Under the pieces are notes generated by a model that saw nothing but the letters and a program-made list of their open reading frames with translations, did no database searches and had not been told where the DNA came from. From an uncultured Verrucomicrobiota bacterium (GTDB taxonomy: Bacteria > Verrucomicrobiota > Kiritimatiellia > RFP12 > UBA1067), in assembly GCA_946623785.1 (NCBI GenBank), contig CAMORM010000002.1, forward strand, positions 1 through 60,712: 60,712 nt of DNA, given 5' to 3'. Shown piece after piece: positions 3,847 through 56,398 of this stretch; position 1 is the stretch's first letter, and each line of letters opens with the position of its first letter. A program made the translations under genes and the position numbers.

Positions 3847-3855
3847 TGGTATAAT
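3847..3855 (+). promoter_or_regulatory. Extended -10 box TGGTATAAT, 7 nt before ATG 3863 (leaderless candidate)
   Basis: Exact motif. No room for a Shine-Dalgarno sequence. Confidence 0.6.
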
Positions 3856-3862
3856 AGGCGGC

Positions 3863-6298
3863 ATGGATAAAGCGACAGCAACCGTAATCGCTGCGATGTG
3901 CGTGCACATCGCGTTTGGCGTTGCCGTCGAATCGAAGGCCGAGGCCGCGGCGAAGCGCACCGAGGTGAGCTTCCTGATGGCGTACACCCCGAACCATCCG
4001 GAGGAGCCGTCCACGCGCCAGCTTCTCAAGTTCGCTGAAGAGCATCCAGAGGTCCATCTTTCCCAGTGGGGCGGACTGACGCTTCCAGGCGGCGGAGGCC
4101 GCGCGACGTTCATGCTCGCGCTTGCGGGCGGAAGCGCGCCGGACGTCTATCGCGCGTGGTTCCATATCCTGCGCCACGACGTCGAGGAGGGTTTCTGCTA
4201 TCCGCTCAACGAGTGGGTGAAGCCGGGCGAACCAGACGAATGGCCGGGGTGGAAGAACGTCCCGCCACTCTGGAAGGAAGTGGCGACGCGCGACGGCCTC
4301 ATATACGGCGTGCCTGTAGCAGGATGCCAGTACTACGGAATCGTCTACCGCAAGGACCTCGTTTCCGCCGCGGGGCTCGATCCCGAGAAGACTCCCGCTA
4401 CGTGGAAGGAGTTTGCGGAGTGGTGCGACCGACTGACGTTCCGCGACAAGGTGATTCCAGGCGCGAAGATACAGCGCGGGCAGCGCGCGTTCGGAATCGA
4501 GAACCGTCCGTGGGGATTCCTCCCCTGGGTGCAGGCGGCAGGCGGAGACGTTATCAGGAGGAGGCCGTCTGAAGAAGGCAAGGAGGAATGGGAGGCGTGC
4601 TTCGACTCGCCTGCCGCATTGCGCGCAGCGGATTTCCTGCACGGTCTCATCACGAACGGCGTGGTGCGCGCGCTACCGCAGCTCTCCACGGTCAACGAGG
4701 CGGCTGAGCTTTTCGCCGGCGGCGAGATAGTGTCGATCTTCGGCGGCGAGGATTTCGTGCAGCAGCTCACGGAGAAGCTCGACTTCCCGGCGGACATGAT
4801 AGGGCTCATGCCGTTCCCCGCTGCCGACGAAGACTGCAAGCCCGTGCTCCAGGCGCACAAGCACTTCTACGCGATGACGGAAGGCGTGGCGCGCCGTCCG
4901 AAGAAAGAGCGCGACGTCGTCTGGGCGTGCATCAACGAACTCGTCTCGCCGGAGGTTCACGACGAGACGGTGCGGCGGAACGTCGCGGAAGGCCGCGCGC
5001 GCTGGTGCGTGCCTGCGGACCTCGTGCGGCTCGGGTTCGAGGAGCACCTCAAGGACGTGCCCGCCGGGATCAGGAAGATGTACGCCGATCTCGAGGCGGG
5101 GAAGATCAAGGCGGTCACGGAACCATACGCAGGTTTCTGGCAGGGCGCGAGCGATCTAGTCGGGCGCCGTTTCTTGGGAATACTTCTCTCCGACCTCGTT
5201 GAGGACTTCGACTACCGCGCGGCGCTGAAGTCAATAACGGAGGACGCAAACCGCGGGCTCATGTTCGACGCCGACAAGTCGCGCATCGAGCGGGCGCGTC
5301 CAGTTGCGCGGACCGTCTTCGGGATAATCCTCGTCTGCGCGGTAGTGTGCATTGCGCTGGTCATGCGCGCGCGTGCGAAAAAAGGCGGAAGCGGCGGTCG
5401 CGGGGCGACCGCCCTACCAACGCGTGTCGACTGGCGTCCGTGGCTCTTCCTTCTCCCGGCGGTTCTTTCGATCGCGCTGTGGAGCTACTATCCGCTTGTG
5501 AAGGGCGCCCTCATGGCGTTCCAGGACTACCGCATAGTGGGCGGCGCCGAATGGACGGGGCTAGACAACTTCATACGCGTCGCCTCTGACCCCGGGTTCT
5601 GGAAATCGTGGCAGCGAACGCTGGAGTACGTTGGGATAACGCTTGCGCTCGGGTTCGTGACGCCCGTTCTGCTCGCGCTGATGCTGAGCGAGATTCCGAA
5701 GGGGAAGGTTTTCTTCCGCACGGTGTACTTCCTCCCGCACCTCACGAGCGCGCTCGTGGTGGCGCTTCTCTGGAAGCTGATGTTCGACCCCACGGAGAAC
5801 GGGATGCTGAACCAGTTCCTCGCGATGTTCGGAATCGCGCGCCACGCGTGGCTGCAGGACCCCGCCTGGGCGATGACGTGCTGCATACTCCCGGGAGTGT
5901 GGATGGGCGCGGGCATGAGCTCGCTCATATACATCGCTGCGCTCGGCTCGCTGCCGCGTGACTACTACGAGGCGGCGGCGATAGACGGCGCTGGGATACT
6001 CGCGCGCTACCGCCACATAACGCTGCCGCAGCTCTATCCGCTGATGGTCATCAACTTCGTCGGCGCGTTCATCGCGGCGTTCCAGGGAATGGGGTCGATA
6101 TTCCTCCTTACGTTCGGCGGACCTGGCGACGCGACGAACGTCCTCTCGCTCGCGATCTGGAAGGAGGCGTACAACAACCTGCGCTTCTCCACCGCCACCA
6201 CGATGGCCTGGTTCCTCGGCGTTGCGCTCATCGGATTTACGGTCCTGCAGATCCGCTTCCTCCGCCGCGTCGAGTTCCGCCAGGCCGCCGCAAACTGA
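3863..6298 (+). CDS. Fusion of an ABC extracellular solute-binding domain to a MalF/UgpA-type permease
   Basis: 811 aa. The N-terminal ~480 aa look like a family-1 solute-binding protein with a signal/anchor. A TM helix follows (VFGIILVCAVVCIALVM), then a 6-TM permease with the EAA loop EAAAIDGAGILARYRHITLPQL. The ATG lies 7 nt after TGGTATAAT. Confidence 0.8.
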   Translation: MDKATATVIAAMCVHIAFGVAVESKAEAAAKRTEVSFLMAYTPNHPEEPSTRQLLKFAEEHPEVHLSQWGGLTLPGGGGRATFMLALAGGSAPDVYRAWFHILRHDVEEGFCYPLNEWVKPGEPDEWPGWKNVPPLWKEVATRDGLIYGVPVAGCQYYGIVYRKDLVSAAGLDPEKTPATWKEFAEWCDRLTFRDKVIPGAKIQRGQRAFGIENRPWGFLPWVQAAGGDVIRRRPSEEGKEEWEACFDSPAALRAADFLHGLITNGVVRALPQLSTVNEAAELFAGGEIVSIFGGEDFVQQLTEKLDFPADMIGLMPFPAADEDCKPVLQAHKHFYAMTEGVARRPKKERDVVWACINELVSPEVHDETVRRNVAEGRARWCVPADLVRLGFEEHLKDVPAGIRKMYADLEAGKIKAVTEPYAGFWQGASDLVGRRFLGILLSDLVEDFDYRAALKSITEDANRGLMFDADKSRIERARPVARTVFGIILVCAVVCIALVMRARAKKGGSGGRGATALPTRVDWRPWLFLLPAVLSIALWSYYPLVKGALMAFQDYRIVGGAEWTGLDNFIRVASDPGFWKSWQRTLEYVGITLALGFVTPVLLALMLSEIPKGKVFFRTVYFLPHLTSALVVALLWKLMFDPTENGMLNQFLAMFGIARHAWLQDPAWAMTCCILPGVWMGAGMSSLIYIAALGSLPRDYYEAAAIDGAGILARYRHITLPQLYPLMVINFVGAFIAAFQGMGSIFLLTFGGPGDATNVLSLAIWKEAYNNLRFSTATTMAWFLGVALIGFTVLQIRFLRRVEFRQAAAN

Positions 6299-6391
6299 AC
6301 GGCACGGCATGACGAGCGGATGCAAAGCCGGCGGAACGGGTCCAGGGGTGTCATTGCTGAATGGATGTCGCATTACCATTAATGACGGCAG

Positions 6392-6916
6392 TTGCAAAGA
6401 GGAGAGAGGTTGAACAGGAAGTTTGCAGTTTTTGCGGTATTAACGGCGCTGGCTGTGCGGGCGCTGATGTCGTTTGCGCCGGATGGTTTCGTCCGGGCGG
6501 CGTTCTGCCTCCCGCCCGCGCGCGCAGCGACTTTCTACTACGGCGTTCCGCTCTGCGCTGAAACCGTCACTTTCGCTGCGCATGGAGTTGCCATGGAAGT
6601 CACGCGCGAATGCGCTGCGCTCGACTTCTTCTCGATTGTCTGCGGCCTTCTCGCCGCGGCCGCGTTCTCTCTCCGCGGCGAATCGCGCGCTGCGGGGATT
6701 GCCGCAGTGGCCGTGGTCCCGCCTGCCGCGTATCTTGTCACGCTCGCCGCCAATTCGCTCAGGCTCATCGTGCTTGTTCCGATCGACTTCGCGTTTCCCC
6801 GCTCCGCCGTGCCGGCGGTCCATCTCGCGGTGGGCGCGTCCGTGTTCCTCGGAGTGTTCGCGTCCCTTTTCTTCGTGCTTAGGCATTTCAGGTGTATTCC
6901 AACGGAGGCGTTATGA
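6392..6916 (+). CDS. Minimal exosortase/archaeosortase-family membrane protein
   Basis: 174-aa polytopic ORF with ordered Cys (TRECAALDF), Arg (ANSLRLIV) and His (AVHLAVGASVF) motifs, as in the exosortase catalytic triad. The track start is TTG 6392; TTG 6410, 5 nt after GGAG, is an alternative. The stop overlaps the next ATG (ATGA). Confidence 0.6.
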   Translation: MQRGERLNRKFAVFAVLTALAVRALMSFAPDGFVRAAFCLPPARAATFYYGVPLCAETVTFAAHGVAMEVTRECAALDFFSIVCGLLAAAAFSLRGESRAAGIAAVAVVPPAAYLVTLAANSLRLIVLVPIDFAFPRSAVPAVHLAVGASVFLGVFASLFFVLRHFRCIPTEAL

Positions 6917-9657
6917 TGACAGACGAAAACCGCAGACAGCTCTTCACGCACCCAGCCACGATGCTGCTGACTCACGTTGCGTTCCCGCTCCTGAACCTGG
7001 GCGGCATCGCGTACATCTTCTGGATAACCAAGGAGGCGCTGGACCCGGGCCTCCATGCGAAGGGCGTGGCCGCTCTGTGCGCCGCAGGCGCGATTCCTAT
7101 CCTGGGGGCGGTTGCGTCGGCGATTGCGCAAAGGCGGCGTCCGGGCCTCTGGCAGATGTTCGCCTTTTCGATGATCGCCGCCGCGTTCCTCTATTTCTTC
7201 TATCCTGCGTCGTTGAGCATGTCGTCCAAGGTCGACAACTGGATAATCTCCGCGACTCCGTTCCTCGCCATGTTCGCGGGCCTTATGCCGATGATATTCG
7301 CCGGCGTGGCGGCGGTGGCGCTGGAGAAGCTTTCGGCGTCGAAGGGCTTGGACATCGGAGTGTCCGGCGGGCTTCTTCTAGTGGGGCCGCTATGTCTGTA
7401 CATGTTCGTGGAGTTTGCCGCCGCCATAGACAGGGCGTTGCGCGGATCGAGCCCCGTGCTGAAGACCGTGCTGGGCCATGTTTTCGCCGTAGGCATGCTG
7501 GCGCTCACGTTCCTCTTCTTCGTCGGACTTCTCCGCGGGCTCTTCCAGCTGACGAAGCTCATGGGCAGGCACGCCGGCAGGGTTGCCGCCGTGATGGTGT
7601 GCGCGGTGGTGCTTCCTTTTTGCGGCCTCACCCTCAACCTTTCGATTCCGTTCCCGGCAGACTTCGCGAACCCCTGGCCCTGGGCGCTTTCCGTCTACAC
7701 GGCGCTCGTGCTCCTTCCAAGGCCGCGTTCGGACGGCGCGGGGCTCTTCCTCTACTTCCTGCAGTCAGCGGCTGGCCCCTTCGTCCTCTACTTCTTCCTT
7801 GTCTTCGTGCCGTTCCTTCCGCTTGCGATCCCAGCGATCCTGCTCGTTGGAACGGGCTTCCTGATCCTTGCGCCGACAATTCTCTTCCGATTCTACACAG
7901 GCGAGATGTACGGATACTGGCAGAAGCTCCGCGAGACGTATTCCGCCCCGAAGGTCCTCGGAGTGGCAGTTGCGGGATTCCTCGTGCTCCCCGCGCTGTT
8001 CTGCATTGACGTGGAAATGGAGCGCCGCGACTTCAAGGCGCTGCTCGCGTGGCACACCGAGGAGGACTACGACGAGCCCGCAAAGCCAATGCCGTGTTCG
8101 CAGGCGAGCACGGAAAGGATCATGAAGAACGTCAACGACTTCGCGTTCGGCGCCGAGACGCCGTTCCTCTCTGCGTGGCGCTCTTTCCGCGTCTACGACG
8201 GCATGTACCTCGCGGACGCTCTGCGCAACGAGCTGAATGTCCGCGTGCTCGGAAAGAAGTACGACGAGGAGTACGAGTGGAGCAGGCACGGGAGGAACTT
8301 CTTCGGCGCGGCGATGTTCGGCACCAATCCAGGCAGGCGTAGCGGACGCGGCGGGATCGGCTGGACGACTCGCCCCGCCCGCACGACGGCTTTCGACGCG
8401 TCCGCGGTGTCTTCCGGCGACGCACTCTACACCGTTAGGGTCGCCGCGTCGTCCGACTCCGAGAACAAAGAGCTGATCCTCAGGTTCAGGCTCCCGGCGG
8501 GCGCCTGGATCGAGGGCATGCGGCTCAAGCTCGCGGACGGAACATGGAAGCAGGCGCGCGCTTCAGAGCGCAAGGCGGCCGAGTGGGTCTACCGCAAGAT
8601 CACCGAGCAGCGCCGCGATCCGTCTATCGTGACTCTCGACACGCCAACGGAGGGGACGTTCAAGATATTCCCCGTCGGCAATGCGGGGCGCGAGGCGGAG
8701 CTCATGATTCGCCTTCCTTCGAAATCGGCGTCGCCGCATCTCGTCAGGCTCGCCGCCGTTCCGCCTCCGCCGAAGACGAAGCGGAAGATGGGCACGGACG
8801 GCAAGTGGAAGTACGAGACGGAGCCCAGGAAGGAGCTCGTGTGGAAAGACGTAGCGAATCCAGACTACTCCGCCGCCCCGGAGATCTACCGCGCGGCCGG
8901 AGCGGAGGTGAGCGTAGTTGGGGCGGACTGGATGGATGCGCATCTCGGCGAGCTCAAGAAGCTGAAGACTGCCGGCGCAGAAGACGGCATCGCCGTGAGG
9001 GTGCGGGAGTTCGACGGCAACGACAGGGAGCTTTGGAGCAAGCTGCGGCGCGAGGTCCGCGCCGCGGCGCGCGAATTTGCCGACAAGGGCGAGTTCTCCG
9101 ACTTCGGCTTCAGGAAAGACACAATCGACGCTGCGTACGAAAAGGTCGACGACGCGAAGATGGCGATCCTGCGTCGCGAGTTCCCAGGGCAGGGCGGATT
9201 CAAGGACAGTCCCGTCGAAGGATGGTTCTTCCTCCCGAAGGCCGGCGGCGGGAAGGTGGCGGTCCCGTACAGGAAGGGCGAAGGCGCAGTCGTTTTCGCG
9301 TCGCTCGAAGGCGCAGCGGAAATCGGCGGCAAGTGGGCCGAGGGCGCGAAGGCGTGGGAGCTCGAGAACAGGGCGTTCCTGAAGCCGGCGCTCGACGTCC
9401 GCGCGGAGCTCCTGAAGGCAACGCGCGAGTCTGGCGCGCTCACGACGAAGTCGGCTTACATAGCCGTTGAGACGACCGCGCAGGAGAAGGGGCTGAAGCA
9501 GAAGGAGGCGGAGGCGCTTTACGGCAACCAGAACCTGGAGTTCGAGGAGCCGGAATCATCCGATGCCCCCGGAATGCTGCTGCTGCTTGTCGTCGTCGCA
9601 GTCTTCTTCGCGCTGCGCAGGCGAATCCTCCCCCTTCTCCGGAAAAGCCTTGCATAG
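6913..9657 (+). CDS. Polytopic membrane protein with a VIT-like domain and a PEP-CTERM-type C-terminal sorting tail
   Basis: ATG 6913 follows GGAGG. The first ~390 aa hold about 10 hydrophobic helices. A VIT-like stretch follows (LILRFRLPAGAWIEGMRLKL..RKAAEWVYRKITEQRRDPSIV..FKIFPVGN). The C-terminus is EEPESSDAPG + MLLLLVVVAVFFAL + RRR. Confidence 0.7.
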   Translation: MMTDENRRQLFTHPATMLLTHVAFPLLNLGGIAYIFWITKEALDPGLHAKGVAALCAAGAIPILGAVASAIAQRRRPGLWQMFAFSMIAAAFLYFFYPASLSMSSKVDNWIISATPFLAMFAGLMPMIFAGVAAVALEKLSASKGLDIGVSGGLLLVGPLCLYMFVEFAAAIDRALRGSSPVLKTVLGHVFAVGMLALTFLFFVGLLRGLFQLTKLMGRHAGRVAAVMVCAVVLPFCGLTLNLSIPFPADFANPWPWALSVYTALVLLPRPRSDGAGLFLYFLQSAAGPFVLYFFLVFVPFLPLAIPAILLVGTGFLILAPTILFRFYTGEMYGYWQKLRETYSAPKVLGVAVAGFLVLPALFCIDVEMERRDFKALLAWHTEEDYDEPAKPMPCSQASTERIMKNVNDFAFGAETPFLSAWRSFRVYDGMYLADALRNELNVRVLGKKYDEEYEWSRHGRNFFGAAMFGTNPGRRSGRGGIGWTTRPARTTAFDASAVSSGDALYTVRVAASSDSENKELILRFRLPAGAWIEGMRLKLADGTWKQARASERKAAEWVYRKITEQRRDPSIVTLDTPTEGTFKIFPVGNAGREAELMIRLPSKSASPHLVRLAAVPPPPKTKRKMGTDGKWKYETEPRKELVWKDVANPDYSAAPEIYRAAGAEVSVVGADWMDAHLGELKKLKTAGAEDGIAVRVREFDGNDRELWSKLRREVRAAAREFADKGEFSDFGFRKDTIDAAYEKVDDAKMAILRREFPGQGGFKDSPVEGWFFLPKAGGGKVAVPYRKGEGAVVFASLEGAAEIGGKWAEGAKAWELENRAFLKPALDVRAELLKATRESGALTTKSAYIAVETTAQEKGLKQKEAEALYGNQNLEFEEPESSDAPGMLLLLVVVAVFFALRRRILPLLRKSLA

Positions 9658-9701
9658 TTCCGTAGCCCGCTTTTTCGCGGTTGCGGCGGCGGAAGGGCGT
9701 T

Positions 9702-9710
9702 TGGTATAAT
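9702..9710 (+). promoter_or_regulatory. Extended -10 box TGGTATAAT, 9 nt before ATG 9720 (leaderless candidate)
   Basis: Exact motif. The ATG opens a clear signal peptide. Confidence 0.6.
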
Positions 9711-9719
9711 TAGTGCATC

Positions 9720-12700
9720 ATGTCCCGATTCCCTTTGTCTTCTCTTTTCGCCCTTGTGCTGGCCGCAGTTGCACCGGTTACGCTTCGCGCAGCTGAGACC
9801 AAACCCGTCCGCTCGTGGAGCGACCCCGTCCTTAAGGTAACCTTTCCCCGCAAGCTTGCCGGTCTGGAGATACGGTCGCGCAGCACCTACGGTCGCGGAG
9901 ACCTGGACTATTCGCTCGGGTACAAGTCGTCCGACGACGACATGTCTGTCAACGGCGAATGGCTTGACGTCTACGTGTACACGCGCGAGGGGAAGGACGC
10001 CGTGCAGGAGAACGTCGAGTCTGAGGCGAGCGCGGCGCTCTCCATGGTCCGCCGCCTGATGGAAGGGCACGGCGCCTCGTTTTCGGCGGACTCGCGCCGG
10101 CTCGTGCAGGTGTGGGACCGGACGGGCTTCACCAACAGCGTCGCGCTGTGCGAATACGCCGGCGGGAAGGTCGGCGGAAGGACTGCTTCCGTAATCTCGG
10201 TGACCGCGCATGCCGGCAGGTTTGTCAAGCTTCGCTATTCCGTCCCCACTGGCGCGGGCGACTATGTGCCCGCAAGGCGCTTCGGAGAGATATGCTCCGC
10301 GCTCGACAGCCTATTCGCGGAATCCGCCAGGCGCGAGAAGATGGACGTCTATGCGGCCGAAGGCGCGGAGGCGCTGCTCGAGAAGCTCCGCGAGAAATGG
10401 CCCGGCGCCGGCGAAACGGTCTCGCAGTGGAAGATGCCGGGAACGGTGGGGCTTGTCGCGGAGCTTGACGCGGCGAGCAGGTGGTGCGCGGAGGAGTACG
10501 CAGGCCGCATCAAGGAGTTCGAGAACGTCTCGCGCCGCGGAATAGAGTCGAAGACCGATCCCGAGACATGGTACTACAACCTCGCATGCGCGCTGTCGAT
10601 GCAGAAGCGCGCCGACGAGGCGTTCGAGGCGCTGGAACAGGCCGTTGCGGCAGGGTTTGACGACGCCGGCCATGCCGAGGAGGACGAGGATTTCGCAAAC
10701 ATAAAGTCGGATGCGCGCTTCGCGCGGCTTGTCGCCGCGATGCGGGTCGTGGCCGCGAAGGCTCCGCCGCTCGGAGTGGAGCCGCTGCATCCCGCCGGAG
10801 GCGACTGCATTGTCGGCGAGGAGAACGTGCGCTACGTCCATTTCGCCCAGTCGTACCTCTGCGCGATCGATACGGCGGACAGGAAGACGGTCGTGTACAT
10901 CGGCAACGACCAGGGACGTGCCGCGCCCTGCGAAGGGCTGCTGACGCCCAGCTTCGAGGAGGAGGCTGACGATTCGGGAGCGATAGCCGAAACGGCGTGC
11001 TTCCACTTTGCGTACGATCCGGACGGCAAGGGGCGCGAGCTCTGGTGCCCGACGATAGTCGCGAGCGCAGCGGGGGAGGAGGAGGACTTCTTCGCCTGCA
11101 TCCCGGCGACGCTTGCCGCAGACGGCGGAGATGCGAACAGGGAGCAGTGCCACGAGCAGTGGAACGTGCTTGGCGTATACGCGGCCAAGGGATTCGGCGC
11201 GGACGGAACGGACCCGCTTCCGTTCTGGAGTCCCGGCTTCATCGCGCATTCGGGCGGGGCGGAAGATGGCGACAAGTTCGTGAAGCTCGCGGCGGACATC
11301 ATCCGGGCGATGCCGTTCGAGGTGATAGAGGATGGCTTCCCGGTTGGACAGCTTGCCCAGAAGATCATCCGGTCGTCGCAGAAAGGCGTCGAAGGCGAGG
11401 AAGGGTTCAAGTCCGGACTGGCGATGCGTCCCGTGCTCGATTTCGCCGATGTTGACGTCGATCGCGCGGTTGCGGCCGCAAAGTCCCTAGACCCCAAACG
11501 GCTTCCTCCGCTGTCGCCGTATTTCAAGAATGCCGGTTCTGCGTTTTCCCCGCCGCCCATGTACGTCGAGTTCTCGATGGTGCATTCCGCGCACCATGTC
11601 GGCGTGCTTCCGAACTGGTTGGCGCGCAGGGGCGTGCTCGATGTGGAGCTCGAGCTTGTAGGCGAGGGTGTGGGCGTGGAGTGGAAGGTCCTCGCGGGGG
11701 ACGCGAGCAGGGTTTCGTTCGAGCCCGCGGAGTCGGGCCACACGCGCATCTGCATCGACTGGCACGATCCTTTCGAGGAGGAGTTTCCGTCCGGCAGGCG
11801 CCTCAAGTCGGCGCGCGTCGACATTGGCTGCTTCGCCGTGCGCGACGGCGTGGCGTCGATGCCGAGCGTCGTGAGCGTGTACTTCCCCCCCACGCAGCAC
11901 CGCGAATACGATCCTGACGGCAGGCCGCGCTTCGTGGACTACACGGACCGCAAGTGGCCCGGGATTCTCTTCGGCGCGTGCCCTAGGGGGGACTGGCGCG
12001 ACGAGCCGCACTACTTCGGGGACAAGGAAGGCGAGCTGACGGGATGGACCAGGTACAGGACTTCGGCGGACGGCGGGGTTTCGACGGAGGAGTTCACGGA
12101 GGACGGGCTTGTCGTGATGACGCGCGACGAACTTGGGCGTCCGAAGCGCTGCCGCAAGGATCTCCGCGCAGAGTGGTACCAGACGCTCCCCGCGTACCCC
12201 GACGCGAAGGAGGTTGACGAGGCGTACACCCTTCTGTCCGCGAAGTACGACACGCTTTCCGAGCCTCCCGAGGGCGACAACGCGACGACGCTCGTGTGGG
12301 AATACGACTACGGCGAGGCGAACGGGACGAAGAAGCTGCGCCCCGTGGCGCCGGTTCGGTTCAGGCGGCGTCCCGAGCTCTGCCCCGCCGCTGACTTCGG
12401 CGCGGAATCCGGCTTTGGGCTTCCGCTTCTCGCGCAGGTGCGCATCGGATACGGCATCTATTCGGAGTACAAGGCGGGGCGCGTTCCGCAGCCGCCTTCC
12501 GCGCGGACGAAGCTCAGGTTCGCGAAGGGCGTTCCGTCCGACAAGTCCCGCTGGCCGGCGGACGCCGACGAATTCGAGGAGGAGGCGGCGAAGCACCTGC
12601 ACGAGCTTGCGGACGGCGCATGCCGCGCTACGGCGAACGCCGGAGGCGGGAATGAGGGGCCGGGGGAGTACATCTCCGTGGAATGGACGCGGTTCACGTT

Positions 12701-14066
12701 GAACCGCGCCTCCGAATACGCGGCGTTCAGCGGGATGAACAAGTTCCAGCGGTGCAGCGAGGACGAGACGCTGGCCGCGCTTTCAAGCCGCACGAACGAC
12801 CTGGACCTCGCGAAGGTGCACGTCAACGGCGGGCCTGTCCCGCTGGAAGACGGCGCCCTGCCGAAGGGCAAGAGCGTTTCGTGCGCGATGTGGGAGATAA
12901 CCAACACGCTCAGGTTCGGCGTGATTACGGACTTCAACAGCAGGTTCGTGGGCAGCAGGTACTTCTTCTGCATGGTCGGCAAGTCGGGCGAGGCGCTCAC
13001 ATGGGATTGGTTCGAGGAGTTTCCGTCGCGCGCGATCGGCGACACGATGCTGATGGCGGCCTGCCACGATCCGGACGCGGTGAACAACCTCGCGGTGCTG
13101 ATGCACGCCGGCGTGTGCAACCCGGGCTCGCGCAGCAGGCCGGCCGTGGAGAAGCTCCTCGAGTTCGCGGCGAATGGCGGGTGCGCGGCGGCGGCGGAGA
13201 ACCTGAAGGCTCTCCGCGGCGGGAACGGCGAGAAGGCGAAGGCCCCTCCGCCCCCTCCTGAGCTTGTGGGCTCGATGATGGGCGAGTACACGCAGGCGTG
13301 CGACATCTGGGACGAGCGCTGGGACCTGCCATTCCGCGAGAGGACGCCGATGCGCCACGTGTACTGCTGGAACGGCGCGGAGAGCACGGTGCGCATAACG
13401 GCCACGGTTGAGGCTCAGGAGGGCGAGCTCAGGTGGAAGCTCATACAGGGCGACCCGGAGAAGGTGCGCATAACGCCGCTCGGCAACGGAACGGGATCGG
13501 TGCGGGCGGAGATAGACTGGCACGGCGCGTACCTCGTGCGCGGGCGCGACGGCAAGACGCGCCGCACGACGCGCGTGGAGTTCGGCTGCGTGGCGGTGAA
13601 GGACGGCCTGGAGTCCGAGCCGTGCGTCGTGAGCGTGAGCGCGTCCCCGCACGCGACACGCGAATACGACGAGGCCGGGTGGCTGAGGAAGATAGACTAC
13701 AGGACGCCGCTCCTGAAGGGCAAGGTGTCTGCGCGCTTCCCGCTCGGCGACTGGGCCGACGTGTTCGAGTACACGCCAGACGGGCGGCTCGCGGGCTGGA
13801 CCCGCCTGCGCACGGACGAAAGCGGCGCGGAGGTGAAGGAGCACTTCACGCGCGACGGCCTCAAGATCCTGACCTACGACGCCATCGGGCGACCGCTCCG
13901 CTGCGAGCGCGACTATCGCGCCACGCTCTACCAGCGCACTGCGCGCGGCGAGCGGAGCGACCACTCGGGGTGCGTGCCCGAGCAGTTCGAGTACCGCTAT
14001 GGCGGCAAGGAGGACTTTCTTGGCCATGCGCGGCCGGCAGGCAGGCCCGCCGCCAGTCAGAGGTGA
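9720..14066 (+). CDS. Large secreted protein with a TPR/Sel1-like segment and two copies of a ~170-aa YD-like module
   Basis: 1448 aa with signal peptide MSRFPLSSLFALVLAAVAPVTLRAAE. Modules at nt 11670..12182 and 13419..13934 align along their whole length. YD-type strings are present (EYDPDGRP, ILTYDAIGRPL). The ATG lies 9 nt after TGGTATAAT. Confidence 0.75.
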   Translation: MSRFPLSSLFALVLAAVAPVTLRAAETKPVRSWSDPVLKVTFPRKLAGLEIRSRSTYGRGDLDYSLGYKSSDDDMSVNGEWLDVYVYTREGKDAVQENVESEASAALSMVRRLMEGHGASFSADSRRLVQVWDRTGFTNSVALCEYAGGKVGGRTASVISVTAHAGRFVKLRYSVPTGAGDYVPARRFGEICSALDSLFAESARREKMDVYAAEGAEALLEKLREKWPGAGETVSQWKMPGTVGLVAELDAASRWCAEEYAGRIKEFENVSRRGIESKTDPETWYYNLACALSMQKRADEAFEALEQAVAAGFDDAGHAEEDEDFANIKSDARFARLVAAMRVVAAKAPPLGVEPLHPAGGDCIVGEENVRYVHFAQSYLCAIDTADRKTVVYIGNDQGRAAPCEGLLTPSFEEEADDSGAIAETACFHFAYDPDGKGRELWCPTIVASAAGEEEDFFACIPATLAADGGDANREQCHEQWNVLGVYAAKGFGADGTDPLPFWSPGFIAHSGGAEDGDKFVKLAADIIRAMPFEVIEDGFPVGQLAQKIIRSSQKGVEGEEGFKSGLAMRPVLDFADVDVDRAVAAAKSLDPKRLPPLSPYFKNAGSAFSPPPMYVEFSMVHSAHHVGVLPNWLARRGVLDVELELVGEGVGVEWKVLAGDASRVSFEPAESGHTRICIDWHDPFEEEFPSGRRLKSARVDIGCFAVRDGVASMPSVVSVYFPPTQHREYDPDGRPRFVDYTDRKWPGILFGACPRGDWRDEPHYFGDKEGELTGWTRYRTSADGGVSTEEFTEDGLVVMTRDELGRPKRCRKDLRAEWYQTLPAYPDAKEVDEAYTLLSAKYDTLSEPPEGDNATTLVWEYDYGEANGTKKLRPVAPVRFRRRPELCPAADFGAESGFGLPLLAQVRIGYGIYSEYKAGRVPQPPSARTKLRFAKGVPSDKSRWPADADEFEEEAAKHLHELADGACRATANAGGGNEGPGEYISVEWTRFTLNRASEYAAFSGMNKFQRCSEDETLAALSSRTNDLDLAKVHVNGGPVPLEDGALPKGKSVSCAMWEITNTLRFGVITDFNSRFVGSRYFFCMVGKSGEALTWDWFEEFPSRAIGDTMLMAACHDPDAVNNLAVLMHAGVCNPGSRSRPAVEKLLEFAANGGCAAAAENLKALRGGNGEKAKAPPPPPELVGSMMGEYTQACDIWDERWDLPFRERTPMRHVYCWNGAESTVRITATVEAQEGELRWKLIQGDPEKVRITPLGNGTGSVRAEIDWHGAYLVRGRDGKTRRTTRVEFGCVAVKDGLESEPCVVSVSASPHATREYDEAGWLRKIDYRTPLLKGKVSARFPLGDWADVFEYTPDGRLAGWTRLRTDESGAEVKEHFTRDGLKILTYDAIGRPLRCERDYRATLYQRTARGERSDHSGCVPEQFEYRYGGKEDFLGHARPAGRPAASQR

Positions 14067-47356: not shown

Positions 47357-50300
47357 TCACCGAATGATCAAGGCCATGCCTGTATTAGCCGGGCGCACAA
47401 ACAGAACGCCGTCGGCCACACTCGCCTTGCAGCGATTGAAGTCGCCGGCGTTGCGGATGCGGAGGGCATTCGGAAGCGCAATCTCGCCGGAAACCGCCGC
47501 AACAGGCGTCCAGCCGGACGGAGCTTCTTCGTCGGCGGCAAGGCCGAAGTCGATCGCCGCGCGGTCGCCAAAGGCGAGGTCTCCATCGACGGAGAGAACG
47601 GAGCCTTCGTCGCCGAGGACGATTGCGTCTGTCACAGTAAGATTGCCCGCAACTGCGCCACTCGCGGCGATGCGCGCGACGGAAGCGCCAGTCTCGCCAA
47701 GATCGCCAAGATCGAGAATCGCGCCGTCGGAGACGGCCACGTCGCCGGACAGGGCGGCAGCGTTCGCCGCGACGAGCGTACCCGCCTCAACTTTGACAGG
47801 ACCCATGAATGTATTCGCGCCGGAAAGCGCGAGCGTGCCCGCGCCCTTCTTCACGAGGCCGCCGTCCGCCGCGCCGGAGAGCGCCGGGTCGGTCAGCATC
47901 GGCTGCGCGATTGTGTATGTCGCGTCGGCGGGAAGGTTCTCCGTGGATATCACCGCGCCGCCATCCGAGACGTAGACTACGTTCAGGTTCTGCATCGTGC
48001 GGTTCGCCTCGTCCTTGCCGTAGGGCATGAACGTGCCCCCGTTGAAATAGACCTTGGGCACGGCCTGGTCGTTGGTCATCATGATGTTCTCCGCCTTCAA
48101 AACGCCGCCGTTCAGGTAGAGTCCGAAATGGTAGAGGATGGATTCGTAGTGGACACCGCCTTTGGTGTTCACCTTGCTGTTCCGGCTCAGGTCGAGCAGC
48201 CCCGTCACGTCGACCTCGCCGTCGTTGAGTACGAGGCAACCTGGAATGCCGGTCTGATCGGCGATGGCGTTGTAGTAGTAGAGATAGAATGTGCCGCCGA
48301 CGGCGACCCGCCCTCCGTTGACCGTCAGCTGCGAGTACAGCTTGTCGCCGGATTTGCTGATGTTGCTTCCGAACCGCACGTCGCCGGAAACGTCGAGGGA
48401 TCCGCCGTTCACCGTGACTTCGCACCCGTAGCGGGGATTCTGGGTCGTATCCACCGGTGAGGTGCGGTAGACGGAATAGACGGCTGGAACCGAGAGCGAC
48501 GCCCCGCTTTCGATGGTGAGGAATCCCTGGTGGGGGTGGTTCGCGTCCACGCCCGGCGCCGGATTGTAGCCGAGGTAGAGTGCGCCGGATGCCGTGACGT
48601 TGCCGGAGATGGTGAGCGATGTGTCGACGCACGGATCGGCTTCGCCGCCATAGGCGCCGCCAAGGACGATCTTGTCGTAGCCGGCGTCGGCGGAGAGCGT
48701 CTTCGGGGTCGGATAGCTTGTGGACCCCGTGACGACAATGTCGTTGGCGATGGTGACGACGAGGGCCTTGTAGCCCGCGTAATCGCCGCTGGCAAGCGTC
48801 ACCTCTTCGGCGGAAAGCGTCGCACTTTCGGGCACGTCTGCGGGAAGGCGGAAGAGCGACGGATCGACGCTGCACGACGCCTGGTAGACGAGGGCGGTGT
48901 AGGTGCCGGACGAGAGGGTGGAATCCCTGAACCAGTCGCTCGTCACCGAAAACGCCACCGGCGAGAGGACGGAAAGCGTTCCGGAGACAACGACGTTGTT
49001 GAGTGCCTTGTTGTTCGATCCGTCGAAGGCCACCGGCTCCGTCGCGCCCGCTTCGCCGAGGGTAAGATTGCCAATCTGCATGGTCCCCTTGTTGTCGTAC
49101 GGACGGAAGCGCGAACCAGGCGCGAACGAGATGGTCTGGCCATCGAGCGACGTGGATGTTCCGCCGGCCGTCGCGCCGCTCTCGACGCGGATGCCGCCGT
49201 TGAGCGTCGAGCCCTTAAACCGACCGCCGAAGAGGACGAGCGAGCGGTCTCCGGGGATGCCCCTGACGGTGATGCCTCCGTCCAGGTCCGCGCAGTCCGG
49301 GTCGTGGTCGATGTGACCCTGCACGGATGCGCGCACCCATTCGAAGGCTTCGTTGTTGTTGTACCAAGCGTATCCTTTCGGCCGCTCCCATTTCGCAAGG
49401 TCGATGACGAGACCGTGTTCGCCAACGGTCGCCGGCTGGTAGTTCAGATAGAAGCGGTTGCCGTCGGTGCTGGTATCCAGGCCGACGGGATAGAGGGTGC
49501 CGCCGTTGAAGTGGAACATTGGACGTTCGGTCTGGTCTGTGTCGCGAAGGCTTTGCGAGTCTTCAATGCTCCGCGCGATGATGGAGCCGCCCTCCTCCAG
49601 GTAGAGGTCGAAGGAGGAACCGGTGGACGACACCGGGCGGATGTAACCATTCTCGACGCGAAGCGTGCCGCCGTCGTGGATGGTGAGCGTTCCGCCGGTT
49701 TCCGAGCCGATGACATTGCGGGACACGACCAGAGTCCCGCGGACCTCGATGTCGGTGTCCACGACGAGGTCTCCGGTCACCTTCACGTATCCGCCGCTGG
49801 TCGCGGCGGCATCCAGGGCGCTCGACGCGGCGGCGATGGTCATGGAGAGCGTCGCCGTGTCGCCGCTCGTCGTCACCGCGAAGGAGTAGACGTTGCTGCT
49901 AGCGGCAGTCGCGCATGACCAGTTGACGGCGCGGAGCGCGTCGGCGTAGGCGACGGGAACTTGCAGCACCGTGTAGGTGCCGGCGGCGTTCTTCGTCCCG
50001 ATTGCGGGCGTGTTGGCGTTGTACAGGGCGACCTTTGCGCTCGCCGGCAACGTGACGGAGTCGGTGACTTTCAGGGCGCAGAGCGTGTCGGCGAAGCCGA
50101 GGATGGCGCCTTCCCCAAGCGTCAGAGAGGCCACCGTCTTCTGTGAGCTTCCAGAGCGCAACTGGCATCCGCTCCCCACGGTGACAACCGAATCGTTCGG
50201 CAAATATCCGTTTTTGGCCATGAAGAGGGCGGCTCCATTCTTCAAAATCGTCGGCCCTTCGTAGGACTGCGTCGTGTAGTAGGCCCAGTTGCCACCGTCG

Positions 50301-51499
50301 AACGTCACGCCTTGCGCGGTCTCGCCCGCCCCGGCCGGAATGGCCGACATGTCCTTGTAGAGCTGCGCGTACTTCGCCGTCTTCCCGCCGCCGCGGAACG
50401 TCGCCCCCTTGGGGCCGATGGCGACGATTGGCCCGACATTCCCGTTATTGTCCGCCTGGAAGAACTGGAAGAAGTTTTCTCCGCCCGAGGCGCTGGAATC
50501 GTTGCGAACGATGCCGCCATTGATTGAAAGCCTTGTGACGGTGGAGCCGGGAGCCTCGATGACGGTGGCGATGCCGAGGATGCCGCCGTCTGTGACGGAA
50601 GCAGTCGTTGTCGAACCGCTTGTGGACGTGATTTTGTTGGCGCGGACCTCGCCTCCGTTGGACGCGGAAATGTCCATCACCGCCCCGCTGCCATTCGCAT
50701 AGAGAGAACCCTTTGTGGCGAACAGGCCGCCGTCATGGACATTGAGCGACCAGCAGTTCCCGGCGCCCGCGTAGGTGTAGCAGTATTCGGAGTTGGTGAT
50801 CACCGCCGTCCCGGAAATGTCCGTGACGTTCGTGGCGTAGGTGGTCTGGTATCCGGCGATGATTCGGTGATTGTTCATGTTCCATGCGCCGCCGGTCATG
50901 GTGAACGTTGATTTCGTGCGGGAACCCGGGGAAAGGAAGAGGTTTTTCTCTCCCATCGTCACGGTGCCGGCGCTCATCGTGAGCGAGACGTCTTCGCCGG
51001 TTCCGCCCTGGGTTCCAAGGAAGAACTGCAGGGAGAACGTCGATGTGCCGTCGGCGATCCCGAGGGCGCCGTCGGCAAGCGTGACAGCCTCGGCGAACGT
51101 GCTGTCGCCGGTGAGCGTCCAGCCGTCGGGGGCTTCGATGTTGAAGGCTCCCGTTCCCGTGATGTCGCCGCCAAAGGTGCCGGAGCCGCGCAGGGTGCCG
51201 CCGGAGACGGTGAACGTCCCCGCGCCGACGGGCGAAGGCCCGCCCGCAGGAATGTCGCCTGTGAGGATGAGCGTGCCGCCGGAAAGCGTCGTTCCGCCGG
51301 TGTGCATGTTGGAGGGATTGAGCTTCACTGCACCGGGGCCTGAGACCTGAACCGCTGTATCGCCCGTAAAGAGCGAAAGAACATTGGTCGTTACGCCCTC
51401 GGGCGGCTCGAGTGTTACCGTATCTGCCATCGCAGACGAGTGAACCGCTGCAATTGCCGAAACCAATGCAAGAATGCGAACCCGAGTAGAGAACATCAT
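47357..51499 (-). CDS. Giant secreted autotransporter-associated beta-strand-repeat protein
   Basis: 1380 aa. AGGAGG RBS and signal peptide MMFSTRVRILALVSAIAAVHSSAMA. Many Gly-rich repeats of the GGTLxLxG type (e.g. KKGAGTLALSGANTFMGPVKVEAGTLV). Ends in GMALIIR. Confidence 0.85.
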   Translation of the reverse strand: MMFSTRVRILALVSAIAAVHSSAMADTVTLEPPEGVTTNVLSLFTGDTAVQVSGPGAVKLNPSNMHTGGTTLSGGTLILTGDIPAGGPSPVGAGTFTVSGGTLRGSGTFGGDITGTGAFNIEAPDGWTLTGDSTFAEAVTLADGALGIADGTSTFSLQFFLGTQGGTGEDVSLTMSAGTVTMGEKNLFLSPGSRTKSTFTMTGGAWNMNNHRIIAGYQTTYATNVTDISGTAVITNSEYCYTYAGAGNCWSLNVHDGGLFATKGSLYANGSGAVMDISASNGGEVRANKITSTSGSTTTASVTDGGILGIATVIEAPGSTVTRLSINGGIVRNDSSASGGENFFQFFQADNNGNVGPIVAIGPKGATFRGGGKTAKYAQLYKDMSAIPAGAGETAQGVTFDGGNWAYYTTQSYEGPTILKNGAALFMAKNGYLPNDSVVTVGSGCQLRSGSSQKTVASLTLGEGAILGFADTLCALKVTDSVTLPASAKVALYNANTPAIGTKNAAGTYTVLQVPVAYADALRAVNWSCATAASSNVYSFAVTTSGDTATLSMTIAAASSALDAAATSGGYVKVTGDLVVDTDIEVRGTLVVSRNVIGSETGGTLTIHDGGTLRVENGYIRPVSSTGSSFDLYLEEGGSIIARSIEDSQSLRDTDQTERPMFHFNGGTLYPVGLDTSTDGNRFYLNYQPATVGEHGLVIDLAKWERPKGYAWYNNNEAFEWVRASVQGHIDHDPDCADLDGGITVRGIPGDRSLVLFGGRFKGSTLNGGIRVESGATAGGTSTSLDGQTISFAPGSRFRPYDNKGTMQIGNLTLGEAGATEPVAFDGSNNKALNNVVVSGTLSVLSPVAFSVTSDWFRDSTLSSGTYTALVYQASCSVDPSLFRLPADVPESATLSAEEVTLASGDYAGYKALVVTIANDIVVTGSTSYPTPKTLSADAGYDKIVLGGAYGGEADPCVDTSLTISGNVTASGALYLGYNPAPGVDANHPHQGFLTIESGASLSVPAVYSVYRTSPVDTTQNPRYGCEVTVNGGSLDVSGDVRFGSNISKSGDKLYSQLTVNGGRVAVGGTFYLYYYNAIADQTGIPGCLVLNDGEVDVTGLLDLSRNSKVNTKGGVHYESILYHFGLYLNGGVLKAENIMMTNDQAVPKVYFNGGTFMPYGKDEANRTMQNLNVVYVSDGGAVISTENLPADATYTIAQPMLTDPALSGAADGGLVKKGAGTLALSGANTFMGPVKVEAGTLVAANAAALSGDVAVSDGAILDLGDLGETGASVARIAASGAVAGNLTVTDAIVLGDEGSVLSVDGDLAFGDRAAIDFGLAADEEAPSGWTPVAAVSGEIALPNALRIRNAGDFNRCKASVADGVLFVRPANTGMALIIR

Positions 51500-51538: not shown

Positions 51539-53258
51539 AAATAGCTACTTCGGACGCAAGAGCGCGTGCCCACGCGAACGCATCGCGCCAGAAGTTGCTG
51601 GTGAAGCCCGTCGCGCCGAGATATGCGGCCTGCCGTAGATCGGCTGGCGAGTTGACGCCATAGACGCGAAACTCCAGTCCAGCGGAGCGCACCGCGTCAG
51701 CGTCTGCTATCGTCATCACATTTTTTGTCGTGTCGCATCCGGGACAGAACACTTCGACATTCGCCGCCTTGCACCTGTCAATCCATTCGCCGATGTTGAA
51801 CGGTTTGTCGCGCGGCAGAGCCGCGAGCCAGACTGTGCGGTACTTTGGATATTTCGCCTTGAAGTCCTTGAGCGCATCGTACTGGAACGACGAAACGACG
51901 ATATTCGCCTCGGTGAGTCCCGCCTTTCGGACTGCCGCGTCGAACAGGTCGGCATACTGCGGCGAATAACCCTTGATCTCCGCTTGCAGGACGCAATCTT
52001 TGGGGACGACAGCCAGGACCTCGTCTATGAGCGGGATTCTGTAGGGCCGGTCGAGCTTGTCCGCCGAGCCGAGGTCGAGCGTCGCGATGTCGTCGGGCGT
52101 AAGGTCGGCGACGCGCTTGGCGCAGCCTGTGTAGCGATTCAGTTCTTTATCGGCGTGCATGCACACCATCTGTCCTGACTTTGTGTGGTGGAAGTCGGTC
52201 TCGACCCAGCGCGCGCCGCTCTCGTATGCACGGCGTATCGCCTCGACGGTGTTCTGCGGGACGGATTTATCCCACATGCCGCGATGCGCGATGTCTATCA
52301 TTTTTAGCGGCGCGGTTCTTGGATGCGGCATGTCGAGCAAGAGAAAATCGACGACGACGGGCGAGTGGTCGGAAATGTGGATCGCATCTTCGTCGACAAC
52401 CACATCATGGCGCAACGCCTTTGCGCCGCGCAAATCGAAAACTATGTGGTCGAGCATGCGATGCCCCTTTTCGCCAGCCTTCCCGACACGCCCGCGGCAG
52501 CGGCCTTCCTCGTCGCGCACGAGCTTGCCGTGCTCCGACGGAATCTTCGACCGCACAGGCGCGACCTCGCCTGCGTCGGCGTATCCTGCTGCGACAAATG
52601 CTTTCAGCGCAGGCGAACCGGCCTCGCAGTTTAGATCGCCGCCGCCGATCACGGGAAGATCGCCCCATTTGGCGCGGACGGACGCGATCCGAGACAGTAC
52701 GTGCCGCGCATTCAGCTCGCGAAGTGCGTCCGATTCCACTCCGTTCGACTGCCACCAGAAATGCGTTGCGAACGCAATGAACCTGCGTCCGTCGGTCTTA
52801 TCCTCAAGCACCGCCCATGTCAGGCTCTTCTCGACCTGAAGCGAGACGTGGTAGAAGTCAAGGCCGTGGTCGAGCAGGTTCAGGCGTTCCTTTCTGTACA
52901 TCAGAGGTTCGTGGTTCACCCAGTTGGCGCGGCGTTCCGCGAGATTCGCGTCGGCGCGGACGAGTGCCGCATCCTCGTCCCCGCGAACTATACCATATTC
53001 GTCGAGTTCGCGAAAAAGGCGGCTGTTCCACCAGCCGGCGTTGACCTCCTGCCACGAAATGACGTCCGGTGCCTGGTGGCGGACGACGGAAATCGCCCGA
53101 CCTTCACGCTCTTCGGCAGAAAAGCCTCCGTAGCCGGCTCCGTAGATGTTGAATGACATGAACCGAAGCGGTTTCTGCTCCGGTGGTACGGCGATTGCCG
53201 TCAATGACGCGACAAGAACGATTATGCTCGCAACTGCACTTCTATTCATACTGAACAT
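51531..53258 (-). CDS. Secreted fusion of an endonuclease/exonuclease/phosphatase (EEP) domain and a glycerophosphodiester phosphodiesterase (GDPD) domain
   Basis: ORF trimmed to ATG 53258; ATG 53249 has better spacing to GAGG. EEP part: LRFMSFNIYG..SWQEVN..SDHSPV. GDPD part: IAHRGMWDKSVPQNTVEAI..VETDFH. Confidence 0.8.
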   Translation of the reverse strand: MFSMNRSAVASIIVLVASLTAIAVPPEQKPLRFMSFNIYGAGYGGFSAEEREGRAISVVRHQAPDVISWQEVNAGWWNSRLFRELDEYGIVRGDEDAALVRADANLAERRANWVNHEPLMYRKERLNLLDHGLDFYHVSLQVEKSLTWAVLEDKTDGRRFIAFATHFWWQSNGVESDALRELNARHVLSRIASVRAKWGDLPVIGGGDLNCEAGSPALKAFVAAGYADAGEVAPVRSKIPSEHGKLVRDEEGRCRGRVGKAGEKGHRMLDHIVFDLRGAKALRHDVVVDEDAIHISDHSPVVVDFLLLDMPHPRTAPLKMIDIAHRGMWDKSVPQNTVEAIRRAYESGARWVETDFHHTKSGQMVCMHADKELNRYTGCAKRVADLTPDDIATLDLGSADKLDRPYRIPLIDEVLAVVPKDCVLQAEIKGYSPQYADLFDAAVRKAGLTEANIVVSSFQYDALKDFKAKYPKYRTVWLAALPRDKPFNIGEWIDRCKAANVEVFCPGCDTTKNVMTIADADAVRSAGLEFRVYGVNSPADLRQAAYLGATGFTSNFWRDAFAWARALASEVAILL

Positions 53259-53275
53259 CCTCGTGTTTGCAAAAC

Positions 53276-53284
53276 ATTGTATCA
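53276..53284 (-). promoter_or_regulatory. Extended -10 box TGATACAAT (minus strand) upstream of the EEP-GDPD gene
   Basis: Reverse complement of ATTGTATCA, 17 nt before ATG 53258. Confidence 0.45.
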
Positions 53285-53335
53285 CAATCCCCCGCACACC
53301 ACAACTACAGCGGTAACCCCAGAAAACAAAGCCTT

Positions 53336-53382
53336 AGAGGGGCAGACCCTTCAGTATAAGCTTGACTGTATATGCTTGAATC
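53336..53382 (+). repeat. 47-nt direct repeat, copy a (left flank of the first tip cassette)
   Basis: Matches 55007..55053 at 36 of 47 positions by hand alignment. Shared core: GTATAAG..ACTG.ATATGCTTG. Confidence 0.6.
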
Positions 53383-53385
53383 CGT

Positions 53386-54399: not shown

Positions 54400-54411
54400 G
54401 AGAAGATAGCG

Positions 54412-54966
54412 ATGCGACATTTGTTGAAGAAATGCATTGTGCTACTTTGCGCTGTTGAGGCTGCTATCTTGGTGGAGATTGGCATTGAATCGCTTGTTGG
54501 TGCATACCGTGATGGTATTGCCTTTCACGAGCTGGCAAGAGACAGAGACGCTTTTTGCAGCGGCGTTTATCGCCTTAATGGCGGGGAATTCATATGGATC
54601 AAGGTGAAAAGATCTTTCCATCTGATCAGTTTCATTTTTAACTTGCCTGATGATGATTGCTATATTGTGGACGGGAAGGGGAGTGCCGTTAAGCGCGTTA
54701 GTACGAGGATACGTCTAAAAGGGCAAGGAGATCGTCTGTTTCCATGGGAGGATAGTATCTCGGAAGACGGTTTTTGCAGCGGCATCTACTCTATTCGTGA
54801 TTTTGCCAATATATCGGTTTTTCGTCGGAACAATGGGTATCAGCAAAAGTTTCTTTGTGTAGGAACGGCGCTCAATATACTTGCTTGTCTTACAGGCTTT
54901 GTTCTTCTTTGGCGAAAGGGCAATCGTTTAACAGGGTCAGATTCGAATGCCGCTAACTTAAGGTGA
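54412..54966 (+). CDS. Hypothetical membrane protein coupled to the chimeric ORF (candidate immunity protein)
   Basis: The upstream stop is embedded in the RBS (TAGGAG), 9 nt before the ATG. N- and C-terminal TM helices. Internal repeat AFCSGVYRL / GFCSGIYSI. AT-rich like the tip. Confidence 0.5.
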   Translation: MRHLLKKCIVLLCAVEAAILVEIGIESLVGAYRDGIAFHELARDRDAFCSGVYRLNGGEFIWIKVKRSFHLISFIFNLPDDDCYIVDGKGSAVKRVSTRIRLKGQGDRLFPWEDSISEDGFCSGIYSIRDFANISVFRRNNGYQQKFLCVGTALNILACLTGFVLLWRKGNRLTGSDSNAANLR

Positions 54967-55006
54967 TTTCGTCAGTCTCCGGCAAGACGACTCGTGATAT
55001 CGTCCG

Positions 55007-56390: not shown

Positions 56391-56398
56391 TGAGGATG

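Follow-up and report, generated by a model that had tools for sequence, protein, structure and literature searches.

Introduction

The XrtK/MSEP-CTERM system (TIGR04287 and TIGR04286) has been catalogued, for the most part in Bacteroidota, as two neighbouring genes in a one-to-one relation, and to our knowledge it is without experimental characterisation. The present analysis concerns a pair of this type in a 60.7-kb stretch of DNA from contig CAMORM010000002.1, hereafter the window, which belongs to a gut/rumen member of the Kiritimatiellae in the Planctomycetes-Verrucomicrobia-Chlamydiae (PVC) group. Two genes on the forward strand, at positions 6410-6916 and 6913-9657, probably form an autonomous cassette in which a dedicated XrtK-like protease/transpeptidase acts on a single cognate MSEP-CTERM-family substrate, cleaved near a DAPG motif.

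Comparison with the catalogued XrtK/MSEP-CTERM pairs revealed the same layout. A minimal exosortase of about 165 amino acids (aa) lies next to a polytopic protein of about 900 aa which carries a VIT-like domain and ends in a signature, a hydrophobic helix and a basic tail. The substrate passes TIGR04286, XrtK is the strongest subfamily match of the enzyme, and the gene order and tight coupling match. The locus differs in its PVC host and in that the enzyme falls below the XrtK cutoff (38.7 against 55 bits), as a sister clade would. The signature also differs: it is (S/G)DAPG and not MSEP, with Asp at the first Pro/Ser position and Ala at the Glu position, and 5-9 extra residues stand between the family acidic box and the signature.

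An earlier note, made from the sequence alone, had read the locus as an XrtK/MSEP-CTERM-type dedicated pair with a polytopic, VIT-containing substrate in a GC-rich, PVC-like host, and on these points it was right. It had made that reading depend on the exosortase profile and on conservation of the tail; TIGR04178 is passed and the tail is kept in homologues. Its description of the pair as a new context was overstated. The system type is already catalogued in NCBIfam, PVC substrates already lie above the TIGR04286 cutoff, and an Omnitrophica homologue carries the name 'MSEP-CTERM sorting domain-containing protein' at NCBI. What is new here is modest: the DAPG variant of the signature, a sub-threshold sister clade of XrtK across gut PVC lineages, a PEP-tailed subclade without a nearby exosortase, and the removal of a neighbouring transporter gene as a false lead.

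Three further sorting systems are relevant. XrtA and XrtB with their PEP-CTERM proteins (TIGR03109, TIGR02595/PF07589) belong to the same superfamily, share the proposed Cys/Arg/His triad and have a signature adjoining the helix; in addition, a subclade of the window substrate family (P0053, P0055-P0058) has a genuine PEP-CTERM tail. XrtA, however, is much larger, serves many substrates and often lies in exopolysaccharide (EPS) loci, and its substrates normally start with a signal peptide and are released from the inner membrane. The window system, in contrast, has one substrate, no EPS locus and a substrate predicted to stay polytopic. The XrtN VIT protein (TIGR04477) likewise has a VIT domain and a dedicated small exosortase that sorts it, but the window protein scored 25 bits against a cutoff of 250, over residues 513-590 of the VIT region only, and is not a member; this identity had been put forward for checking by the earlier note. 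The mechanistic template is ArtA/PGF-CTERM of Haloferax volcanii, in which the C-terminal helix is removed in a reaction coupled to lipid attachment (PMC7157517; bioRxiv 10.1101/2023.06.07.544157). Among the branches of the enzyme family, ArtA stands for the only one studied by experiment (PMC7157517, summarised in bioRxiv 10.1101/2023.06.07.544157). Unlike the window enzyme it is archaeal and processes many substrates, including the S-layer glycoprotein, which bear the signature PGF and are otherwise soluble ectoproteins.

The small exosortase

6410..6916, + strand: minimal exosortase-family protein, XrtK-like, 168 aa, about 4 transmembrane (TM) helices, putative catalytic Cys68/Arg118/His138 (TIGR04178, invariant residues)

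The small open reading frame (ORF) ending at 6916 passed the exosortase/archaeosortase signature TIGR04178 with 29.7-29.8 bits (cutoff 23), residues 62-158 covering positions 1-93 of the 97 in the profile. XrtK (TIGR04287) was the top subfamily match at 38.7-38.8 bits, under its cutoff of 55 bits. All 16 PVC homologues aligned for the exosortase were matched by the XrtK model (best E 6.9e-12), far ahead of other exosortase subfamily models. Judged by these profiles, the PVC small exosortases look like a sister clade of the curated XrtK proteins.

Analysis of the aligned homologues revealed invariant residues that include R66, C68, N115, R118, H138 and G142, with the motifs R-x-C, N-x-x-R and H. 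This invariance extends from Kiritimatiellae as far as Akkermansia, among proteins 21-55% identical to the window exosortase, and Cys, Arg and His are likewise kept across 25 loci. The three residues thus stand in the order that had been predicted from the sequence, as Cys68, Arg118 and His138. A Cys/Arg/His triad is the one proposed for the exosortase family (bioRxiv 10.1101/2023.06.07.544157). The protein is predicted to have about four TM segments, with Cys68, Arg118 and His138 toward the periplasmic ends of TM2, TM3 and TM4. Sequence searches of the PDB with profiles of both protein families gave nothing meaningful, and no solved structure of an exosortase-family protein turned up in them. 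One homologue, at 9067-9903 of locus L024 (complete chromosome OW818680.1), has an insertion of about 90 aa that separates the helix bearing the Cys from that of the N-x-x-R motif.

The listed ORF runs from TTG 6392 to 6916 and encodes the 174 aa given in the earlier note. The assignment to the exosortases stands, whereas the length most likely does not: translation most likely starts at TTG 6410 and yields 168 aa, because GGAG (6401-6404) lies ahead of this codon, the 14 close homologues are mostly 168-176 aa long with aligned ones, of 168-169 aa, starting at the MNRKFA position, and the 88%-identical relative L034 has a GTG at the very codon of TTG 6410. The source's own gene call (P0075, 6575-6916) is a 107-aa truncation beginning at internal Met62. 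It misses the 61 conserved residues that make up the first third of the protein, among them invariant F32 and Y43.

The MSEP-CTERM-family protein, the probable substrate

6913..6916, + strand: ATGA start/stop overlap of the exosortase and substrate genes (read from sequence)
6913..9657, + strand: MSEP-CTERM-family protein, 914 aa (TIGR04286, 268.5 bits)

The exosortase and substrate genes share the ATGA at 6913, as had been noted before, and GGAGG (6904-6908) lies ahead of the substrate ATG. A 4-bp overlap is also found in L034 (9474-10004 and 10001-12772). The overlap is consistent with translational coupling of the two genes.

Against TIGR04286 the substrate scored 268.5 bits (cutoff 150), with residues 13-587 covering positions 5-565 of the 920 in the profile and a second matched stretch besides. 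All 23 homologues aligned for this protein matched TIGR04286 as well, and all 23 gave weak matches to TIGR04477 over the VIT region. The Pfam VIT domain (PF08487) reached 22.1 bits (E 1.7e-4) in the window protein, against a gathering score of 26.5 bits, and was matched by 9 of the 23 homologues at E<=0.01 (best E 1.7e-6).

The AlphaFold2 (AF2) model of the substrate, built with 23 homologues, had a mean pLDDT of 79.7 and a pTM of 0.71. It shows about 11-12 membrane helices (residues 14-382), a helical juxtamembrane region (397-469), a beta sandwich (494-670), an alpha/beta region (690-870) and a final helix (888-913). The 914-aa protein with about 10 TM helices and a VIT-like domain described in the earlier note is thereby recovered, with about 11 TM helices in its N-terminal part and a VIT-like beta domain. 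Hydropathy and the Arg/Lys content of the loops gave a self-consistent topology which keeps the positive-inside rule throughout: the N-terminus is predicted to be cytoplasmic and followed by 11 TM helices, the ectodomain periplasmic, and the tail helix running from outside to inside so that RRR is cytoplasmic.

The top Foldseek match of the ectodomain was inter-alpha-inhibitor heavy chain 1 (ITIH1; 6fpz/6fpy), with E 1.1e-3, probability 1.00, 10% identity and low TM-scores. We call the beta domain VIT-like because of the near-threshold Pfam VIT score, the homologue matches and this ITIH1 match. ITIH1 also has a VIT domain followed by an alpha/beta domain and is the best structural match of the ectodomain, but with 10% identity and TM-scores of 0.19/0.26, and with unrelated processing chemistry and enzymes, it serves as an analogy only. 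ITIH chains undergo cleavage close to their C-terminus and become covalently linked to a glycan. Inspection by eye of the sequence that follows the first beta strand of the alpha/beta region (VREFDGNDRE) revealed no DxSxS metal ion-dependent adhesion site (MIDAS) motif. For the 11-TM domain there was no convincing structural match among the 50 Foldseek matches listed, all of which concern the VIT/alpha-beta ectodomain.

The C-terminal sorting signal

9541..9654, + strand: tripartite C-terminal sorting signal (homologue tails, MAFFT)

The tail of the substrate consists of an acidic box (LEFEEPE), the signature SDAPG, the hydrophobic helix MLLLLVVVAVFFAL and a basic cluster (RRR...RK). Analysis of the tails of 65 close and 140 more distant homologues revealed a common grammar: a conserved helix, ..AY(I/V)VE(N/T)xAQxKxLxxKE.., is followed by the acidic box (D/E)-F-(D/E)-E, by a short signature directly touching the hydrophobic helix, and by a basic cluster. 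The wider family has [ST]-P-[EA]-P-[SG] or M-S-E-P as its signature, and the window clade has [GSA]-D-A-P-G in 50 of its 59 members. A literal Met-Ser-Glu-Pro at the C-terminal helix is not present in the window protein, which has SDAPG instead. When tails were aligned with MAFFT, DAP fell in the same columns as PEP, PAP and SEP of the TPEP, TPAP and MSEP members. F877 and P886 do not vary, P886 being the Pro of DAPG, whereas the Pro in 'FEEP' is missing from 17 of the 59 clade members, which have FDES.

Signatures of the exosortase type adjoin the TM helix without a spacer (bioRxiv 10.1101/2023.06.07.544157). Because SDAPG touches the helix, holds the invariant P886 and aligns with PEP, PAP and SEP, it is most likely the functional signature, and EEPE most likely belongs to the upstream acidic box. 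The PEP-CTERM-style tail of the earlier note is therefore retained as to its hydrophobic helix followed by RRR, and corrected as to EEPE, which is not the PEP equivalent. The PEP-CTERM models PF07589/TIGR02595 gave no match for the window protein.

Signature, helix and basic cluster are found in essentially all full-length members of the substrate family (577 representatives at E<=1e-30), and this tripartite form is kept while the helix sequence itself is not conserved. Retention of the sorting-signal grammar in more than 500 representatives, despite the unconserved helix sequence, speaks against a different explanation of the locus, namely that the C-terminal helix is an uncleaved twelfth TM segment and the small protein a non-catalytic assembly partner or pseudo-enzyme. 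With about 11 TM helices already holding the substrate in place, a cleavage cannot be meant to set it free from the membrane; the AF2 model has low confidence at residues 876-893, so the structure of the junction is unreadable; and our literature search found no experiment on the MSEP-CTERM/XrtK family. All three points would suit an uncleaved helix. However, the invariant Cys, Arg and His at 21-55% identity argue for catalysis, and a bona fide PEP-CTERM domain can take the place of the tail, as described below. We consider an uncleaved helix quite unlikely.

Conservation of the pair

One genome per species was scanned, which gave 33 loci from Kiritimatiellae, Lentisphaerae and Verrucomicrobia (including Akkermansia and Puniceicoccales); 29 of them hold DNA upstream of the substrate gene and four hold none. 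Neighbours were analysed by tblastn, all-against-all clustering of ORFs and six-frame searches with hidden Markov models (HMMs). The exosortase gene lies directly upstream of the substrate gene in 26 of the 29 informative loci and just downstream in one (L026), so that the pair is adjacent in 27 of 29; it is absent beside the substrate in L016 and L017. With 27 independent species-level loci showing it, the pairing is far beyond chance. Consecutive genes are the mark by which dedicated one-to-one systems are recognised (bioRxiv 10.1101/2023.06.07.544157).

ORF clustering across the 33 loci found no third conserved gene beside the pair. Recurrent neighbours were considered as partners and rejected; these are housekeeping genes of clade-local distribution, namely an SNF2 helicase in 7 loci and, within the Akkermansia branch, UxaC or an HD-domain protein. 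The names of the cluster members held nothing beyond 'hypothetical protein'.

In the window there is no second exosortase (six-frame HMM search), no EPS locus and no other PEP-like tail. No other such tail was found in 620 kb of related loci either, except in L011, where a DAPG-type pair is preceded, at a distance of about 4 kb, by the gene for a 210-aa protein (5756-6388) whose tail, PAPEPTGG..RRRR, is of the classical PEP-CTERM kind.

These observations bear on the possibility that the small exosortase is a general PEP-CTERM enzyme with many substrates, the large protein being one substrate among them or an accessory subunit. Akkermansia muciniphila, whose metagenome-assembled genome (MAG) contigs hold homologous pairs (L028, L032), has been reported with 23 PEP-CTERM proteins and 'an EpsH-like gene' (PMC4960237); the EpsH-like gene was not identified in the supplement of that proteome paper. 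The classical PEP-CTERM protein 4 kb from the pair in L011 points the same way, as does the tail of the Verrucomicrobia/Akkermansia members, which is xPAP and near to PEP. On the other hand, the exosortase gene is tied to this one substrate family in 27 loci, the DAPG signature of Kiritimatiellae is missed by PEP-CTERM models, and, L011 excepted, neither the window nor the 620 kb of related loci holds another such tail. Finally, members with true PEP-CTERM tails have no exosortase gene within 6-10 kb, which implies a separate exosortase of general function and a specific role for the small one. Overall, our analysis suggests that a general role for the small enzyme is unlikely.

The PEP-tailed subclade

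The members without an exosortase gene within 6-10 kb on either side are L016, L017 and L036-L038, a subclade of rumen Kiritimatiellae. Their proteins end in TPEPG or APEPS instead of DAPG, and this subclade holds the only family members that match PF07589/TIGR02595 (three TPEPG-tailed proteins among the aligned homologues). Two PEP motifs (ETAPEPP...ATPEPG) are present in the subclade together with a classical PEP-CTERM tail. Downstream of the substrate gene, L036 and L037 carry a small ORF and a radical SAM gene for a 274-aa protein.

The pattern fits a dedicated enzyme that reads the variant signature, with a general exosortase taking over after the tail has turned into PEP. A more far-reaching proposal, which we put forward as speculative and unlikely to hold in full, is that the DAPG and TPEPG branches represent a natural specificity swap, in which the enzyme would read 'DAP' and not 'PEP' and its loss would force conversion of the tail, and that the new C-terminus of the 11-TM protein would be transferred to a lipid or envelope glycan, giving a doubly tethered VIT/vWA-like bridge, a bacterial analogue of ITIH glycan attachment.

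Proposed mechanism

In the dedicated two-gene cassette, the substrate would insert in the inner membrane with its N-terminus cytoplasmic, about 11 TM helices and a periplasmic VIT/vWA-like domain of 500 residues. Its last helix would recross the membrane, leaving RRR in the cytoplasm, and the active site of the exosortase would, by the predicted geometry, face the junction of SDAPG and the tail helix. By analogy with ArtA/PGF-CTERM and XrtA/PEP-CTERM, the exosortase would cut at or beside DAPG through a Cys acyl-intermediate and remove the helix and RRR anchor, and the new C-terminus would be either released or moved to an acceptor such as a lipid headgroup or glycan. The processed substrate would stay membrane-bound by its N-terminal polytopic domain, its ectodomain being remodelled or re-tethered and not secreted. 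Since the substrate would keep its 11-TM domain, processing could not serve secretion and would have to free or re-tether the C-terminal end of the VIT-like domain. Topology, cleavage event, cleavage site and acceptor are all proposed here by analogy and from predicted geometry.

Several observations weigh against the dedicated-pair interpretation. The enzyme stays under the XrtK cutoff. Its AF2 model, built with 12 close homologues, is unreliable (pLDDT 52.3) and was for this reason not used for a fold search, so that the active-site geometry is derived from hydropathy and helix boundaries alone. The count of one such tail and one exosortase covers the 60.7 kb of the window, which is only part of the genome. 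Because a classical PEP-CTERM protein lies near the DAPG pair in L011, general exosortase systems probably coexist with dedicated pairs, and cross-processing is possible. The PEP-tailed subclade is probably monophyletic, so the correlation between motif and sortase may be a single evolutionary event. A literature search for MSEP-CTERM, XrtK and 'exosortase K' returned no relevant papers and no experiment on XrtK or MSEP-CTERM.

Exosortases are very widespread, yet their chemistry and attachment acceptors are almost unexplored. A pair of one enzyme and one substrate, with an enzyme of 168 aa, is the simplest possible system for reconstitution. The PEP-tailed sister subclade offers a ready-made comparison of specificity, and homologues occur in cultivable relatives, as the A. 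muciniphila MAG contigs indicate.

The neighbouring transporter fusion

3863..6298, + strand: fusion of solute-binding protein (SBP) and permease, 811 aa; neighbour, not part of the module (Pfam, synteny)
6370..6409, + strand: about 40 bp conserved with L034 despite a different upstream gene; holds the ribosome-binding site (blastn, pairwise alignment)

The gene upstream of the pair is a real one and encodes the 811-aa binding-protein/permease fusion that had been described, with SBP_bac_1 at residues 57-336 (77.8 bits) and BPD_transp_1 at 613-806; the closest NCBIfam models are UgpA and MalF. The fusion had also been taken as part of a single unit with the pair. Read in this way, fusion, exosortase and MSEP-CTERM protein would be one conserved operon in which the transporter, for example, supplies the acceptor or senses a ligand. 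The three genes are on the same strand, the gap after the fusion is only 94-111 bp without a terminator-like site, and a fusion gene likewise precedes the pair, in the same orientation, in L034. However, tblastn found no fusion homologue beside the pair in any of the 33 species-level loci. The fusion is also conserved at a different level: at least 120 clusters, full length and of the same architecture, are 70-89% identical to it (several are named Kiritimatiellae proteins), whereas the substrate protein is only about 47% identical within the same class. Its neighbours are different housekeeping genes in each genome examined, being ribosomal proteins, gyrA or a rhamnogalacturonan-lyase-like gene in three genomes (L039-L041). 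In these three, neither an exosortase gene nor a second permease or ATPase gene on the same side lies beside the fusion.

In L034, 7.2 kb with four genes (a Ser/Thr kinase, an extracytoplasmic function (ECF)-type sigma factor, a LamG and a BACON/Fn3 protein) separate the fusion from the pair. The blocks shared in blastn stop at window position 6298 and restart at 6370, so that 71 bp of the window (6299-6369) correspond to 2259-9454 of L034. Because of this 7.2-kb interval and the block boundaries at 6298/6370, the adjacency of fusion and pair in the window, with its gap of 94-111 bp, is on sequence comparison a recent insertion/deletion and not a module. The three-gene unit is thus refuted by synteny as a conserved module, and we regard a shared operon function as highly improbable. 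The conserved 6370-6409 possibly holds the promoter-proximal region of the pair itself. A scan of the intergenic gaps found no promoter or terminator consensus and was uninformative on the transcription unit. The genes downstream of the pair also differ between the window and L034.

The fusion stands alone in varied housekeeping surroundings, with no adjacent second permease or ATP-binding cassette (ABC) ATPase gene in the window, L039 or L041. It may act as a sensor or represent an orphan half-transporter.

Other genes in the window

Directly after the pair, 9720-14066 encodes a protein of 1448 aa with a signal peptide and no Pfam match. By eye it holds two modules of about 200 aa (..EWKVLAGD..IDWHDP..GWTRYRT.. 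and ..RWKLIQGD..IDWHGA..GWTRLRT..). This secreted protein was considered as a second substrate and rejected, as it has no sorting tail and is not conserved beside the pair. On the reverse strand, 47357-51499 encodes a 1380-aa protein whose sole Pfam match is one passenger-associated transport repeat (PATR) near residue 1214; it has no PEP-like tail.

The other genes of the window are of housekeeping type and include ClpB-like, CysK-like, rpsB, Ser/Thr kinase, GDP-mannose dehydratase, ClpX, ExbB, MacB/FtsX and fmt genes. From 52000 to 60712 the GC content falls from about 0.63 to 0.51-0.58, and this part contains an AAA_14/DUF4143 ATPase gene (56807-58177) and ORFs without a Pfam match. It may be foreign or mobile DNA.

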